Source: a virus | Length of the DNA: 64,000 bases | IMG/VR virus record: IMGVR_UViG_3300034101_003479 | Coordinates: 1-64,000 of that record | Strand: one strand, 5' to 3' | Part shown: positions 14,445-38,076 of the stretch, piece after piece | Position numbering within the stretch: position 1 is the stretch's first letter | Layout: each line of letters starts with the position of its first letter | Made by a program: the position numbers and the translations under genes | The notes under the pieces: generated by a model | Told to the model about the DNA's origin: nothing | Databases searched by the model: none | What the model saw: the letters and a program-made list of their open reading frames with translations, nothing else

Positions 14445-14627
14445 CTACTCTGAATCCTTATTTCTGATTGGGCTAGTTGCTACCCATAAAGCAGTCGTGG
14501 CTATAATTCCATATCCAACAATAGTCTTTGCACTTCCGTCCAGAACTACCCAAGCAATAAACATTCCAAGAAGGGTCCATGCTTGGTCAACCATATCTTT
14601 TAGGATATTCTTTATTATTCTTACCAT
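14445..14627 (-). CDS. small two-TM membrane protein
   Basis: Two hydrophobic segments; overlaps the stop of the large surface protein. Confidence 0.75.
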   Translation of the reverse strand: MVRIIKNILKDMVDQAWTLLGMFIAWVVLDGSAKTIVGYGIIATTALWVATSPIRNKDSE

Positions 14628-17161
14628 TTTCTTCCTCCTCGTGAACCTGGTGAATTAGCTCCTGATGAGCCTCCCCCAGAATTTCCTCCGCCTCCTGTGC
14701 CACCTCCAGTGGCTCCTCCTGTGGCAACTGCTGCTGCGTTAATTGCTGCACCTGCTGCGACAACTGTTGCTACAACCATTTCTGTTGCCTCTTCTCTTTC
14801 TTCATCTGACATATCGGCGCCTATATTGCTTAGTGCTTCAATAGCCGCTCCAGGGTCTGAAAATGCTGTTGATAATAACTCTGCAGGATTTTCAAGCAAT
14901 ACCAAAGATGCTGCTACCTCTGCTGTAATAACAACTTCGTTACCATTTTCATCCTGCCTTACTTCAACTGGAGTAGATGCAGGTAAGTCTTTATATTCAA
15001 TTCCAGCTTCTTGAATTTGTTCTTTAGTTAAAGATTCTCCAGGAACAATAGACTCTACGAGTGCATCTGCTATCAATTCCTTTTCTGAATTAGTTAATTT
15101 TCCATCTTCAGATAAAGCATCTGCAAGGTTTTGAACTTCTTCTGCAGTTACTTCACCATCACTTGCTAATTCATTTAAAATATCTTCTGCTTCCTCTGTA
15201 TCTATTTTACCATCAGATATTGCGTCATCAACAGATTCTTCTACTGCTTCTTCTGATCCCGTCACAGGCTCTGTGTCAATTGGTTCTGTCTCCACAGGCT
15301 CTGTGTCAATTGGTTCTGTCTCCACAGGCTCTGTGTCAATTGGTTCTGTCTCCACAGGCTCTGTGTCAATTGGTTCTGTCTCCACAGGCTCTGTGTCAAT
15401 TGGTTCTGTCTCCACAGGCTCTGTGTCAATTGGTTCTGTCTCCACAGGTGTGGTATCAACTGGTGTGGTAGTTACTGGTGTAGTGTCTACAGGTGGCACG
15501 ACTACTGGTGTAGTGTCTACAGGTGGCACGACTACTGGTGGTTCAACTGGTGCAGGTGGAGTAGGGGCTGGCAAGGGCGCTGGTGCAGGAACTGCATCAA
15601 TTACTGTTTGTGCTGCTGCTACTATTGTAGGTGCAGTAGTTACTTTTTCTACGGCTGTAGAAACAATTGCAAGGTCTGCCACCTTTTCAGTTAATGTTGT
15701 GCTTGCTGCTGCTAATGCCGTTACAGTATTTTGTGAAACAGTTGCAATAGGTGCAATAACTGTATTTGTATTTGCTGTATTTGTTGCAACAATAGCAGTA
15801 ACTGCTGAGTTTAATGTAGCAATTTGTGCATTTGCTGTATCAATTGCTGCCAAGACTGCTGCATTGTCTGGATCAGGGGTAGGAGTAAATGCAGCGCCTT
15901 GACTAATTGTTCCAGTAAATCCCGTAGTAGTACTTGTATTACTAATATTTGTTACGGGACCATTTGTAGTCTCTCTTACGTTAAATCTAGCACCATTTGG
16001 GATTGGTCCAGTCACGCTTACATCTGCTTGCCAGGCACCATCTGAAGGATTAACATCCGCATTAAATCTAACTTGAGTCATTTGTGTTTCTGCTGTCTGC
16101 AAAGGATAAACTCTAAGATCCCAAGCAACGCTAAGGGTGTTTGTAGTTGTTGAATATGTAATTCCAGATCCATTACTCCAGGTAGTCCAGTCATATCCTG
16201 CTATAGAAATAGAAGGCGCATTTGGAGTAGAATAATAGTTTGCACCTTCATTTACACCAAATGTAATAGTGGCATTGGACCCGACGTAAACATTATTGTA
16301 TGTGACTCCGCCCATCTGTAAATTAAATGGAAGGTTCATTCGAACACCAGCGTCATCTACATTAGATAAAACGTTTGTGGTAGTGCCAATGGTTGCCGCT
16401 AGAGCATTGACTGCATCTTGAGCGTTATTAATTGCTACGTTTGCTTGAGTTAATTGTGTTTGAGCCTCTGTCCGTGCAGGTGTTACTGCTGCCACTGCCG
16501 TAGTTGCTGTAGCAACTGTTGTAGTGGCCGTATCTATTGCTGTTTGTGCTGATTGAACTAAAACTGTGGCCGTTTCTGATTGGGCAACTTCTGTTGCAAT
16601 TGCTGTGGCTACTTGTGCAACTGTGGTTGGGGTCTCTGTCATTAATGGAGTTGCTGTTGCTATCACAGTGGCTACTGCAGAATCTACAGTAGTAACGGCT
16701 TGCGTTATTACTGCTTGTGCCGCTACAACCTCTGGTGTTTGGGTTGTGGCTGTTGCTGGTATTGCGGCTACAGCCTGTGTAACTGCTGTTACCGTTGAAG
16801 TAATTGTTTGAACAACTGTTGTTGCAGTTTCTACTGCTGAAGATACATTTGATACTTCTGCTACCGCCGTAGTTGCTGCTGCTACGGCCGTAGTTGCTGC
16901 TGCTACGGCAGCGTTAGACGCTGTTACTGATTCAACTGCAGTGGCTATGGTTACTGTTGCTGTATCTGATGCTGCTGCAGCTTGTGCAACTTCTGTAGTT
17001 GCTGTTGCAATTGCTGTGTTAACTGCTTGCTGTGCAGGGCTTACTACAACTTGCTCTGCAGGTGCTGGTGGCTCATTAGCATTAGCAAAATTAGGACTAA
17101 AAAGGAAAAGCCAGCCGATTATAAAAAGGCTGGTTAAAAAATACTGTAGCTTTCTAGTCAA
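14621..17161 (-). CDS. large secreted mucin-like surface protein
   Basis: Signal peptide; Ala/Thr/Val stalk; NIDO-like core (DD..LPF...YVGSNATITFG); Pro/Thr/Glu repeats; acidic DGxxxxEE-like repeats; C-terminal hydrophobic and Gly-rich tail. Confidence 0.8.
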   Translation of the reverse strand: MTRKLQYFLTSLFIIGWLFLFSPNFANANEPPAPAEQVVVSPAQQAVNTAIATATTEVAQAAAASDTATVTIATAVESVTASNAAVAAATTAVAAATTAVAEVSNVSSAVETATTVVQTITSTVTAVTQAVAAIPATATTQTPEVVAAQAVITQAVTTVDSAVATVIATATPLMTETPTTVAQVATAIATEVAQSETATVLVQSAQTAIDTATTTVATATTAVAAVTPARTEAQTQLTQANVAINNAQDAVNALAATIGTTTNVLSNVDDAGVRMNLPFNLQMGGVTYNNVYVGSNATITFGVNEGANYYSTPNAPSISIAGYDWTTWSNGSGITYSTTTNTLSVAWDLRVYPLQTAETQMTQVRFNADVNPSDGAWQADVSVTGPIPNGARFNVRETTNGPVTNISNTSTTTGFTGTISQGAAFTPTPDPDNAAVLAAIDTANAQIATLNSAVTAIVATNTANTNTVIAPIATVSQNTVTALAAASTTLTEKVADLAIVSTAVEKVTTAPTIVAAAQTVIDAVPAPAPLPAPTPPAPVEPPVVVPPVDTTPVVVPPVDTTPVTTTPVDTTPVETEPIDTEPVETEPIDTEPVETEPIDTEPVETEPIDTEPVETEPIDTEPVETEPIDTEPVTGSEEAVEESVDDAISDGKIDTEEAEDILNELASDGEVTAEEVQNLADALSEDGKLTNSEKELIADALVESIVPGESLTKEQIQEAGIEYKDLPASTPVEVRQDENGNEVVITAEVAASLVLLENPAELLSTAFSDPGAAIEALSNIGADMSDEEREEATEMVVATVVAAGAAINAAAVATGGATGGGTGGGGNSGGGSSGANSPGSRGGRKW
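15263..15448. repeat. perfect 30-bp tandem repeat x6
   Basis: CACAGGCTCTGTGTCAATTGGTTCTGTCTC six times; encodes ETEPIDTEPV. Confidence 0.97.
15474..15540. repeat. 30-bp tandem repeat x2.2
   Basis: ACTGGTGTAGTGTCTACAGGTGGCACGACT; encodes VVVPPVDTTP. Confidence 0.9.
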
Positions 17162-17229
17162 CTAGGTATCTCCTAAGTAATGCAATATTTTTGCTTACTT
17201 AGTAATTATAGCAGATGTGTTAGTTTAAA

Positions 17230-17409
17230 TTACTTAGAATCTGTTTTGTAAAATCCATTACCTTTAAATTGTATACCAAAGGAGTGATAGACCTTGTTCA
17301 TCTTATATCCACATTTTTCACAAATTTCTACAGAATCTGACTCTGCAATTGGTCTGTTTACTTCTTTAGTAGAGTCACACTCTATGCATGAGTATTCATA
17401 TGTTGGCAT
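17230..17409 (-). CDS. FmdB-family zinc-ribbon protein (59 aa)
   Basis: Read manually: MPTYEYSCIEC...CEKCG...IQFKGNGFYKTD; AAGGA RBS. Confidence 0.88.
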   Translation of the reverse strand: MPTYEYSCIECDSTKEVNRPIAESDSVEICEKCGYKMNKVYHSFGIQFKGNGFYKTDSK

Positions 17410-17425
17410 CTTTAATCCTTTGTTA

Positions 17426-17544
17426 GAGAGCAGTTTTTTACAGTCATGCTCAGGACTATACCAGTTATTTATAGTCGCTGTCTCCCCCGACTATCCTGGG
17501 CGTCGATGCCCGAATCTGCGACTCCCCAGTGACGGGGTGCAGAT
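17426..17544 (-). ncRNA. candidate structured leader RNA (three hairpins plus H-type pseudoknot)
   Basis: GC-rich non-coding island just after a TATAAT box (17549-17554); four base-paired elements visible. Confidence 0.65.
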
Positions 17545-17557
17545 ATCTATTATACTA

Positions 17558-17965
17558 TTACTTTATTTTAATTGTTTTTGGCTTTTTCTCTTCTGGGACA
17601 TTTTTTCTAATGTGTATATGAAGCATGCCGTCTTTCATTTCAGCGTTATCAACTTCCATATACTCTCCTAATGAAAATGACCTTTCGAAGTTTCTTTTGG
17701 CAATACCTTCGTGGATATATTCTCCATCCCAGTGTTCTCCGTGTAGCTCACCTTTGATTACCAAATTATTATTTTCAACATAAACACTTATGTCTTCACG
17801 TTGAAATCCAGCAATTGCCAAACTAATGCCATAAGCACCGTTATCGAATTTAACTAGATCATAAATTGGATAGTTAGAGTTTGAAGATTGCATTTTTGCA
17901 AAATTTGTATCCCATCCAATAAAAAATGGATCATTAAAAAGATCCATAGCAAGTTTTGTTACCAC
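17558..17965 (-). CDS. hsp20: Hsp20 small heat-shock protein
   Basis: NYPIYD, LAIAGF, HEGIAKRNFERSF, DGMLHI, PEEKKPKTIKI. Confidence 0.95.
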   Translation of the reverse strand: MVTKLAMDLFNDPFFIGWDTNFAKMQSSNSNYPIYDLVKFDNGAYGISLAIAGFQREDISVYVENNNLVIKGELHGEHWDGEYIHEGIAKRNFERSFSLGEYMEVDNAEMKDGMLHIHIRKNVPEEKKPKTIKIK

Positions 17966-17966
17966 T

Positions 17967-18017
17967 TTATTCCTCCTTCAAGCGAATAAGTTAAATTAGG
18001 CCCCATTCGGCGACCTA
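17967..18017 (-). promoter_or_regulatory. hsp20 leader with RBS-occluding hairpin
   Basis: TTATTC-GCTTGAAGGAG-GAATAA just before the GTG; upstream TAGGTC/GGCCTA stem. Confidence 0.5.
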
Positions 18018-20164: not shown

Positions 20165-20176
20165 TTTTTCTCCTTG

Positions 20177-20250
20177 TGCAACAAGTAGGACTTGAACCTA
20201 CGATTACCGAATTATGAGTTCGGGGCTTTAACCAACTAAGCTATTGTTGC
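20177..20250 (-). tRNA. tRNA with CAT anticodon (elongator Met or Ile2)
   Basis: Cloverleaf: acceptor GCAACAA/TTGTTGC, D arm GCTT/AAGC, anticodon CCGAA-CTCATAA-TTCGG, T arm GTAGG-TTCAAGT-CCTAC; no encoded CCA. Confidence 0.93.
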
Positions 20251-21673
20251 CAGTTAGTATATTATAACTATAATGTACCTGCCAGTCAATAGCATCTTGC
20301 TTATCATTTAATAAAGGCTGCCCTTTTATATTTAAACTTGTATTTAAAAGGACTGGGCAGCCAGTATCCCAATACCATTTTCTTAAAAGCATGTGTAGCC
20401 CTGGGTGTTGATCCCTATTGACAGTTTGAACTCTAGATGTTCCATCTTTATGAACAACTGAAGGTATCTTGTCTGGCTGCTTGCACTTTACTGTATACTG
20501 CATGTATGGGGATGCAAAGTCCATATCAAACCACTCACTTGCAAACTCTTCAAGCACAACTGGTGCAAACGGTCTAAACTGCTCTCTTTGTTTAATTGTA
20601 TTAACTTTATCTTTAATATTGGGATCCCTAGGGTCAGCTAAAATACTTCTATTCCCAAGAGCTCTTGGTCCGTATTCTGCTCTGCCAGTTGCAACTGCTG
20701 CTATCTTATTAGTTTTTAATTCTTCAAGTATTTTATTTACTGGGTACTCTCCGCCCATATCGTAACCAAGATACGGCCCTTTCCAGTCAATATGCTTTCC
20801 GTATAGGGCTGCTGCTGCCCCAAGAGATGAGCCAGCATCGCCTGGGTTTGGCATGATCCAAATATCTTTAAATATATTCCATAGCAATGTATTTGCAGAT
20901 GAATTTAAGGCGCATCCGCCCATAAAAACAAGGTTTGATTTTCCAGTTAATTTTTTTGCCATTTGCATAAAATCAATTAGTCTTTGCTCATATACAACTT
21001 GAACTGCTGCAGCTATATCAAACTTGTCTTGTTCATTAATTGGAAGACCCCAATCTGTTATTCCTTGATGAAAATTATATGATTGCTCATGATACTTTGG
21101 AAAATATGAATCTACTTCTTTATAGTATCTTTGCCAGTCTCCATATGCAGCCATGCCCATCATAATATACTCTTCTTGATTAGGCATAAGTCCAATTAAT
21201 TTAGTAAATGCTGAGTAGAATAGTCCAAAACTGACTGGGTAGTTCTGCTTAAACTTTAAGCTAATTTTTTCGCCTTCCCCTACCCAAATAGTTGAAGTGT
21301 TATATTCCCCTATGGCATCTAGCACCACTATTGCTGCGTCTGTAAAACTACTAGTATAATAACCAGCGCATGCATGAGAATAGTGATGGCTAAATGATTT
21401 CCTAGGGATTGATTTTATATCAAACCTAGGCTTCCAGTCCCCAGAACCACCCTTTATAAATAGCCTAGAGGCCTTTAGGAGCGGTTTTTCGTAGTAGGCT
21501 ATAGCATCAGGTACCCCATACGACAAAGCATCCCCAATTAGGCTGTCGTTGACGTACCAATCATTTTTTTGCTTACTATATCTTTCTGCATGACCAGCAA
21601 ATAATATTTCTCCATCTTTAATTAAAGATACTGAGGCGTCGTGTGATGTTTCATTTACTCCCAGAATTATCAT
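20228..21673 (-). CDS. NodU/CmcH-family carbamoyltransferase
   Basis: HDAS, HHYSHA, GGCALN, DAGSSLGAA, EYGPRALGNRSILA, KQREQFRPFAP, LLNTSLN. Confidence 0.95.
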   Translation of the reverse strand: MIILGVNETSHDASVSLIKDGEILFAGHAERYSKQKNDWYVNDSLIGDALSYGVPDAIAYYEKPLLKASRLFIKGGSGDWKPRFDIKSIPRKSFSHHYSHACAGYYTSSFTDAAIVVLDAIGEYNTSTIWVGEGEKISLKFKQNYPVSFGLFYSAFTKLIGLMPNQEEYIMMGMAAYGDWQRYYKEVDSYFPKYHEQSYNFHQGITDWGLPINEQDKFDIAAAVQVVYEQRLIDFMQMAKKLTGKSNLVFMGGCALNSSANTLLWNIFKDIWIMPNPGDAGSSLGAAAALYGKHIDWKGPYLGYDMGGEYPVNKILEELKTNKIAAVATGRAEYGPRALGNRSILADPRDPNIKDKVNTIKQREQFRPFAPVVLEEFASEWFDMDFASPYMQYTVKCKQPDKIPSVVHKDGTSRVQTVNRDQHPGLHMLLRKWYWDTGCPVLLNTSLNIKGQPLLNDKQDAIDWQVHYSYNILTGNNSLVG

Positions 21674-37984: not shown

Positions 37985-38003
37985 TTCCGCCTTTTCTTTC
38001 TAG

Positions 38004-38076
38004 TACCAAGGGTGGGATTCGAACCCACGCTTTATAAATTTTAAGTCTACCGCCTCTACCACTGGGCTACCCTGGC
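38004..38076 (-). tRNA. tRNA-Leu(TAA), short variable region
   Basis: Acceptor GCCAGGG/CCTTGGT, anticodon GTAGA-CTTAAAA-TTTAT, T arm GTGGG-TTCGAAT-CCCAC; no CCA. Confidence 0.9.

Follow-up and report, generated by a model that had tools for sequence, protein, structure and literature searches.

Between an hsp20 gene and a small zinc-ribbon gene, on the minus strand of a 64,000-nt stretch of viral DNA (positions 1 to 64,000 of IMG/VR record IMGVR_UViG_3300034101_003479; hereafter the window), lies a non-coding element whose transcript is predicted to fold into several hairpins and a terminal pseudoknot. The locus raises the question of what such an RNA is for, and an earlier note on this DNA had proposed a riboswitch-like two-state regulator or an independent small RNA. 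Comparisons by blastn and MAFFT across several hundred IMG/VR loci, from which the structures, their covariation, their modularity, their promoter spacing and their distribution can be read directly, indicate that the element is a real, conserved and strongly constrained structured RNA. On the same comparative grounds the leader is a promoter-coupled cassette, a mosaic of interchangeable modules. As to its function we tentatively favour, with confidence a little short of even, a constitutive RNA-decay barrier or insulator/boundary cassette, with gene shuffling as a by-product.

The case for selection on RNA structure begins with the 3' end of the element, where P4 and an H-type pseudoknot (hereafter the knot) are made up as follows.

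17428-17544, minus strand: whole leader RNA element, intergenic, with hsp20 upstream and a 59-amino-acid zinc-ribbon gene downstream
17428-17459, minus strand: P4 with its H-type pseudoknot, comprising S1, L1, S2, L2 and L3
17454-17459 with 17440-17445, minus strand: stem S1, AUAGUC/GACUGU
17447-17451 (loop GAGCA) with 17428-17432, minus strand: stem S2, (U)GAGCA/UGCUC
Loops of the knot: L1, C; L2, U; L3, AAAAAAC

The knot alignment was free of gaps and comprised 150 of 170 fixed-length unique copies, about five chance pattern matches being kept among the 150. Standard pairs made up 88% of its pair cells; column shuffles gave 74%, and sliding of the partner strand gave 25-37%. Its covariation score (0.383 vs 0.131) was reached by none of 500 shuffles. 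All four Watson-Crick pair types occur at three positions of S1, whose outermost pair is open in 88 of the 150 copies and which is therefore effectively a 4-bp stem. Both sides of S2 change at three positions, giving the compensatory variants GGGC/GCCC, UAGC/GCUA, GGGUA/UACCC and UGGUA/UACCA; most loci were retrieved with a pattern that fixes S2, so that this variation comes from the remaining loci, and S1 was never selected for. The P4 helix and pseudoknot of the earlier note are thus borne out by covariation. The knot was also said to end a few nucleotides ahead of the AAGGA of the Shine-Dalgarno (SD) sequence, and in the window the gap is 7 nt. A search for extra copies in the 85,870-base record of which the window is a part (estimated 74% complete) returned nothing beyond chance, with three pattern matches, one of them real, against 0-3 in 20 shuffled genomes.

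Upstream of the knot the element consists of hairpins and a linker, which together with the flanking features are arranged as follows in the direction of transcription.

17558-17965, minus strand: hsp20 gene, upstream of the element, stop codon at 17558-17560 (PF00011, E 8.6e-20)
17549-17554, minus strand: TATAAT, the -10 box of the leader's own promoter, 3 nt past the hsp20 stop codon
17514-17544, minus strand: P1, the 5'-terminal hairpin, AUCUGC-A-CCCC-GUCACU-GGGG-AGUC-GCAGAU
17498-17511, minus strand: P2, an optional small hairpin, GGGC-AUCGAC-GCCC
17488-17494 with 17471-17477, minus strand: P3 as first proposed, AUAGUCG/CGACUAU
17474-17491, minus strand: P3 core, GUCG-GGGGAGACAG-CGAC, a 4-bp stem with an invariant 10-nt loop
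17461-17473, minus strand: conserved A-rich linker, UAUAAAUAACUGG
17407-17427, minus strand: 7-nt spacer (17421-17427), SD AAGGA (17416-17420) and ATG
17230-17409, minus strand: Zn_ribbon_8 gene, 59 amino acids, downstream of the element, ATG at 17407-17409 (PF09723, E 5.7e-10)

All of the helices listed in the earlier note were found on the minus strand, and the GC-rich island that it described after the TATAAT is real, with a GC content of 0.54 at 17450-17549 compared with 0.28-0.33 in nearby sequence. The promoter is tied to the structure by a strikingly regular spacing. Of 97 related contexts, 89 have a TAYAAT hexamer in the 120 nt that precede the P3 core, and the gap from its end to the first module is exactly 6 nt in 78 of 83 cases, irrespective of which module leads: to the CUGC of P1 in 50 of the 54 cases with P1 first, and to the GUCG of P3 in 28 of the 29 with P3 first. 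Given this constant gap, the transcript should begin at the foot of a hairpin, which would place a helix within a few nucleotides of its 5' end. A scan for two-hexamer sigma-70 promoters did not call the TATAAT at 17549-17554, because it has no -35 box.

Compensatory changes in relatives likewise uphold P1. Of 64 unique copies, 57 have the inner 4-bp helix completely paired, C-G being replaced by U-A or A-U at three positions, and the A bulge, the AGUC and the GCAG are conserved around two loop types, GUCACU and UUCAUC. P2 is present in the window but proves to be merely an optional hairpin among relatives; it is missing in many of them, and the alignments show hairpins of other sequence in the same place. 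Of P3, the 4-bp GUCG/CGAC core is general (79 unique copies, with the compensatory GUUG/CAAC in 2 of 83), whereas the three outer pairs of the original proposal all form in just 7 of 52 copies. Two further matches to P3 have no GUCG 5' strand, one being a leader with an altered 5' side (L519) and the other an unrelated GC-rich stretch (L518). The linker follows the consensus xUAAAUAMCUG in nearly all copies of both variants of the leader (the second is described below), and its CUG could pair with the CAG of the P3 loop, two sites at which there is no variation. The repeated GGGGAG(U/A)C that had been pointed out does occur twice, but it is not a conserved motif, and its first four letters covary within P1. 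The minimum-energy fold of the element reproduces P1, P2 and P3. Its energy of -41.2 kcal/mol (z -1.84, matched by 10 of 200 shuffles; opposite strand z -1.53) is barely beyond that of shuffled sequences, so that a single-sequence fold proves nothing here.

The element does not travel as one unit. In the alignments its modules appear in differing combinations, in the order -10 box, P1, optional P2, AGGAU, P3 core with linker, and P4 with pseudoknot. Of 81 unique contexts with P1, 51 also have the P3 core and 30 do not, and P1 is found both with and without P2 and P3. The 18-mer of the P3 core occurs exactly in at least 118 IMG/VR stretches (141 occurrences, with 84 unique 100-nt continuations), and the Hsp20 proteins of loci that share it are only 55-60% identical to that of the window. 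In 79 of 98 unique P3-core contexts an hsp20 gene immediately precedes the core on the same strand, a figure that is partly biased in that the first 160 loci were retrieved by their flanking proteins (searches with the Hsp20 and zinc-ribbon proteins gave 583 and 584 confirmed IMG/VR relatives, respectively, and 80 loci of each were kept).

What follows the leader is variable. Of 75 leaders that carry both P3 core and knot, 28 precede an SNase gene, 10 a zinc-ribbon gene, 17 a promoter-like box without SD and twelve one each of other open reading frames (ORFs), the remaining 8 being unclear. The SNase homologue was assigned (PF00565, E 1.6e-17) in L003, a close relative whose Hsp20 is 96% identical and whose gene order is hsp20, leader, SNase, zinc ribbon; the window has no SNase gene. 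The leader thus has no fixed tie to the FmdB-type gene, since at least 14 different ORF types, or a promoter, stand behind leaders of this kind. Such changing downstream genes argue for a generic cassette and not for a sensor serving the FmdB-type gene.

A cassette of this description could also be a purely DNA-level recombination element with no RNA function of its own. It would resemble the PeSLs of T4-type phages, which are described as composite terminator/promoter motifs that mediate shuffling (PMC4122927). The leader too is a promoter and stem-loop composite whose sequence is kept while the flanking genes differ, and the presence of SNase between leader and zinc-ribbon gene in L003, and not in the window, is the kind of difference that such shuffling would leave. 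Against this, the compensatory changes preserve helices, the pseudoknot included, and so point to selection at the RNA level; moreover, PeSLs are repeated within a genome, whereas this element has a single copy, and recombination is better seen as a side effect. We consider a purely DNA-level role scarcely credible.

A second variant of the leader was observed in 14 unique sequences, which join the P3 module and linker to a different multi-stem domain of about 95 nt (for example L175:2925-3056, minus strand; other loci include L163, L200 and L232). A long covarying stem closes this domain, behind which come a new -10 box and a gene for an HNH endonuclease. The whole forms a candidate non-coding RNA of about 130 nt, for which no Rfam family fits (five loci searched; the variant-2 RNA gave no match at E<=10).

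The modularity bears directly on the two-state riboswitch, in which a ligand or signal would shift the RNA between the P3-plus-pseudoknot fold and a rival stem and so control the zinc-ribbon gene.

17470-17476 with 17454-17460, minus strand: rival stem, GACUAUA/UAUAGUC

The rival 7-bp stem exists in the window as proposed but is not conserved: it is fully paired in 4 of 52 copies and reaches at least 6 pairs in 7.7%, compared with 12% when partners are swapped. A hairpin that sequesters the SD was rejected as a conserved feature as well, the longest run of pairing between the 3' strand of the knot and the SD averaging 3.92 nt against 3.88 in the control; 8 of 36 copies reach 6 nt or more, compared with 13% of controls. 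In the window the run is 3 nt, and the SD lies outside the knot. Very high sequence conservation would suit a ligand-binding RNA, as would the build of the knot, which recalls the smallest known aptamers, of preQ1-I type: both have a hairpin of 5 bp, a short L1, an A-rich tail that ends in C and a loop-tail pairing within about 32 nt. Here, by comparison, S2 has 5-6 bp, and an L2 of a single nucleotide leaves little space for a pocket. Neither is there a link to one pathway, the genes downstream being unrelated and the proteins upstream of knots falling into 52 clusters (see below), and no riboswitch model matches at E<=10. With neither a conserved rival stem nor conserved SD sequestration, and no link to a single gene family, the two-state regulator is not sustained, and we regard it as highly improbable.

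Nor does the element belong to a described family. Rfam 15 at gathering threshold returned two tRNAs in the whole window and nothing at the element, and at E<=10 the 271 bases of 17350-17620 gave four unrelated matches, all with E>=1.2. No match to any Rfam model of an exoribonuclease-resistant RNA (xrRNA) was obtained, ARAGORN found no tRNA or tmRNA at the element, and a blastn search of 17150-18000 against 50,697 phage records was without a match. A full-text literature search found no description of the motif or of phage xrRNAs in the accessible parts of the sources. The motif may be among the 8,495 candidate structured RNAs that have been catalogued from IMG/VR (PMC10690425), entered there with no function assigned.

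The knot has a life well beyond this leader. Its loop and tail pattern was found in at least 120 IMG/VR stretches, in AT-rich and GC-rich contigs alike and in up to four copies per stretch among those listed, and at least four of five S1 pairs form in 123 of 140 unique copies. The nearest same-strand ORF (at least 50 amino acids) ends 8-14 nt before the loop motif in 53 of these 123, with a sharp lower limit at 8, a further 14 having the ORF end at 15-25 nt and four inside the knot. On the other side, the spacing between the knot and the following ORF varies widely (29 copies have 15-30 nt and 40 have over 130 nt), and only one copy lies within a same-strand ORF of at least 100 amino acids. 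The 85 proteins encoded upstream are unrelated, forming 52 clusters, and PHROGs gave no common function for ten representatives. A U-tract follows immediately behind the knot in 24 of 122 copies, compared with 2 of 121 at a control offset, and a same-strand tRNA gene starts no more than 34 nt behind it in 17 of 123, in 16 of these within 15 nt. In both settings the knot would end up at the 3' end of an RNA.

These tRNA genes, and the bases that follow the knot, suggest another explanation, namely that the knot is a tRNA-acceptor-like minihelix of the turnip yellow mosaic virus type, marking sites for RNase P or the CCA-adding enzyme and thereby punctuating the mRNA. Stacked, S1 and S2 would give about 10-11 bp; GCUC is followed by an A in 89 of 123 copies, and ACC follows in 20 of 122 (background 1.3%) and ACCA in 12 of 122. 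RNase P is universal, and the motif is found in many phyla. The window copy, however, is followed by UCUA and not ACCA, and most copies are without CCA. RNase P would not need the conserved S2 and AAAC, and neither ARAGORN nor the Rfam tRNA model calls the structure. A tRNA-like role is therefore very unlikely in our estimate.

Searches of contigs from prokaryote genomes returned chance pattern matches inside ORFs as well as well-paired copies, the latter in contigs of many phyla, including metagenome-assembled genomes (MAGs) of Saccharibacteria and Methanobrevibacter, for which binning errors are possible. Two contigs binned as Methanobrevibacter carry well-paired knots with a U-run (L425:377-401 and L464:1893-1917), the first of them just ahead of an ArdC-N/IrrE-like gene and a type I restriction-modification system, a setting that suggests a mobile element. 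Four Saccharibacteria MAG contigs (L401, L437, L453 and L498) share the same knot with near-identical flanks about 20 nt before a GGGAGG SD and an ATG. Rfam searches of 15 prokaryote loci with the knot returned only an nhaA-I riboswitch, two tRNAs and a hammerhead, all elsewhere in the loci. The hammerhead is a type III ribozyme (L421:7541-7595, minus strand; 50.5 bits, gathering 48.5) about 200 nt upstream of a knot copy on the same strand, in a contig labelled as a Polynucleobacter MAG. Among unrelated phage contigs, four (L288, L297, L284 and L371) have repeated TTATCCACA-like (DnaA-box-like) words 30-60 nt past the knot.

In ten prokaryote MAG contigs from several phyla, a short ORF ends at a UGA inside the knot loop; the units lie at the following positions.

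L429:1775-1876
L431:5503-5565
L445:7517-7579
L448:6839-6907
L455:2136-2198
L469:6385-6447
L485:4345-4407
L506:4379-4426
L510:7174-7245
L515:1149-1211

Counted from its SD, the ORF has about 20 codons (15-33 amino acids as called), with the consensus M-K-R-F/Y-x-x-P-R-x-A-H-C-x-E/D-G-C-x3-S, and its third-codon positions vary as those of coding sequence should. At least three of these ORFs have their own promoter and SD (L445, L455 and L515), a terminator stands behind the knot in L445, L455 and L466, and some units adjoin ArsR-like or MerA-like genes. The nhaA-I riboswitch (L510:6567-6627, 53 bits) is about 600 nt upstream of one unit. The short ORF has no match in Pfam or NCBIfam.

Taken at its broadest, the distribution would make the roughly 30-nt knot, S1(4-5 bp)-C-UGAGCA-N-S1'-NAAAC-UGCUC(A), a general 'boundary knot' of prokaryotic viruses and mobile elements, by which messages are capped or insulated where genes end. 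Followed by a U-tract it would serve as a terminator of pseudoknot type, beside tRNA genes as a 3' cap and in the present leader as a 5' barrier, P1 and P3 being further parts of the same toolkit. We hold this wider generalisation to be possible but doubtful.

The very strict conservation could instead reflect recognition by a specific protein or by RNA polymerase, the element perhaps serving in antitermination, as a promoter-proximal site of HK022 put or nut/boxA type, or in translation, as an operator comparable to that of T4 gene 32. The element has a fixed position right after its promoter, the P3 loop, the AGUC bulge of P1 and the S2/AAAC sequences are invariant, and every gene of the window sits on the same strand, in long arrays. 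The gene 32 pseudoknot operator is likewise missing from Rfam (PMC10690425). The 3' strand of the window knot together with the spacer even fits 12 of 13 positions of the rrn boxA consensus, and that of relative L004 fits all 13. Yet boxA requires a U where 89 of 123 copies have the A after GCUC, S2 covaries away from boxA, and the boxA letters would be paired inside the knot; boxA was accordingly discarded as a feature of the knot in general. No protein emerged as a candidate for binding, and the occurrence of the knot in contigs binned with Archaea and many phyla speaks against a single host factor such as NusB/E. We think a site of this sort improbable, though less so than the two-state, tRNA-like and DNA-level explanations.

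What is known of transcription comes from 17 RNA or RNA-labelled metatranscriptome runs, all of which hold only about 5-6% of the sampled words. Contigs of relatives from such runs cover P1, the -10 box and the end of hsp20 in four of four runs examined, and one of 173 nt (depth 6.3) spans 17428-17543 and ends at 17543, which is weak evidence for a transcript border. These contigs are assembled and come from relatives, so they attest presence and not RNA ends, strand or level, with DNA carry-over possible, and positions that they leave uncovered carry no weight. A terminator scan found none from hsp20 to the zinc-ribbon gene, including both sides of the element, and the hsp20 transcript can read through into it.

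On these data the element might be an independent small RNA of about 120 nt that acts in trans or as a decoy, the ORF behind it being incidental. It has its own promoter, the conserved part is held by the RNA-run contigs just described, a second promoter takes the place of the SD behind the knot in 17 of 75 relatives, and variant 2 resembles a self-contained RNA of about 130 nt before a new promoter and the HNH gene. In the window, though, the knot is followed by UCUAACAAAGGA, with no U-tract directly behind it such as an intrinsic terminator would have, and SD and ATG come within 20 nt. No target complementarity was found, and contigs cannot reveal a discrete RNA. For relatives with a new promoter behind the element such an RNA is possible, but overall this alternative seems to us decidedly unlikely.

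The genome around the element appears to be that of a siphovirus-like phage. The window encodes a 2,086-amino-acid tape-measure protein and a DnaE-like polymerase. The best cultured-phage matches of the latter are Streptomyces phages (57% identity). This resemblance, together with the -10-only promoters and the ORFs that begin right after such boxes, makes Actinobacteria the likely host group. In relatives such as L173, L183, L207 and L212, ORFs begin 6-8 nt past a TATAAT without an SD, which suggests leaderless mRNAs and would fit an actinobacterial host. Directly downstream of the zinc-ribbon gene, an 846-amino-acid ORF (14621-17161, minus strand) with its own TATAAT about 40 nt upstream encodes long Ala/Thr/Val-rich stretches and a tandem TEPIDTEPVE-type repeat, its Extensin_1 match being weak and under the cut-off. 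The window also contains tRNA genes for Met (CAT) and Leu (TAA), at 20176-20250 and 38003-38076 on the minus strand, and a Nol-like carbamoyltransferase gene at 20228-21673.

We return to the decay barrier or boundary cassette as the reading that we favour. Hairpins at the 5' terminus, of the ompA 5' untranslated region type, stabilise bacterial mRNAs, and Actinobacteria possess both RNase J and RNase E. In the proposed mechanism, a transcript would start about 6-7 nt past the TATAAT and run into the zinc-ribbon gene, making the element its 5' leader, while any transcript that reads through from hsp20 would carry the same stretch as an extension at its 3' end. The hairpins at the start of the RNA would shield its 5' end from RNases that depend on it, and exonucleases or helicase-like enzymes would be halted at the gene boundary by the knot with its bracing A-rich loop. 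The downstream ORF would thereby be protected and the upstream message capped, and the conserved sequence would offer a likely recombination point at which the genes behind the leader are swapped. Modules that are gained and lost independently, before a varying downstream gene, fit a generic device of this kind, as opposed to a sensor devoted to one gene. Across phages the knot is found at places where RNA ends arise or need defending: after stop codons, before U-tracts, ahead of tRNA 5' processing sites and before an SD. Stop anchoring, U-tracts and adjacency to tRNA genes favour a 3' cap in most phages, and the position in the window, 7 nt before the SD, favours a 5' barrier for the zinc-ribbon message along with capping of the 3' end of hsp20 read-through RNA. 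What we infer from this arrangement is that RNA stability is affected, in which direction protection acts and which enzymes take part.

Several observations weigh against the decay barrier. The P3 loop is invariant and S2 and AAAC are nearly so, a degree of conservation that exceeds the needs of a purely mechanical block and hints at a specific partner such as a protein, RNA polymerase, the ribosome or RNase P. Elsewhere the knot is anchored to the stop codon upstream of it; here the hsp20 stop is 98 nt away, and the roles in the two settings may differ. Two Streptomyces phages with the closest polymerase are without the knot pattern, and the energy of the single-sequence fold does not stand out (z -1.84).

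Should the knot prove to be a generic barrier to decay or processing, it would explain differential stability of neighbouring messages in many phages without terminators, and the concept of xrRNAs and end caps would be extended to bacteriophages. It would also offer a compact part (about 30 nt), independent of the host, with which synthetic transcripts could be stabilised or insulated. If the wider boundary-knot generalisation is true, no roadblock RNA that works without protein would have been described before it except in eukaryotic RNA viruses. The modular leader itself shows one promoter-plus-RNA cassette being reused by phages ahead of changing cargo genes. For annotation, it represents an unlisted RNA family with hundreds of IMG/VR members, absent from Rfam 15.

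Among known systems, the 5' stabilisers of ompA type are alike in having a hairpin near the transcript start, upstream of the SD and free of any ligand, a position that is deduced here from the promoter spacing. The present leader differs from them in being a multi-module mosaic with invariant loops and a pseudoknot at its end, common to many phages, and its stabilising action is a proposal. The T4 gene 32 operator (mentioned in PMC10690425) offers the same succession of a pseudoknot in the 5' leader, an A/U-rich spacer and the SD; no autoregulating protein is known for the leader, and the genes downstream of it are unrelated to one another and are not genes for single-stranded DNA-binding proteins. 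With the PeSL cassettes (PMC4122927) the leader shares a conserved promoter and stem-loop composite that borders variable genes, and some knots likewise stand directly before a new promoter. It occurs once in this genome (74% complete) and in another phage lineage, and it bears a covarying pseudoknot in place of a simple terminator hairpin.

Another architectural parallel is with the xrRNAs of plant RNA viruses, of the Tombusviridae/Luteoviridae and Benyviridae/Virgaviridae types; xrRNAs also stop bacterial RNase J1 in vitro (PMC8374639). They too are small stem-loops in which the apical loop pairs with a 3' tail. The knot matches them in its compact build and its covariation-supported loop-to-tail pairing, and it shares their high sequence conservation, a position at the border of an RNA unit and the proposed role of a roadblock independent of protein. 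The likeness is one of architecture and covariation, and the carriers of the knot are DNA phages. Most knots are anchored to a stop codon or stand before a U-tract or a tRNA gene, and capping of 3' ends would suit them at least as well as a block to degradation in the 5'-to-3' direction.

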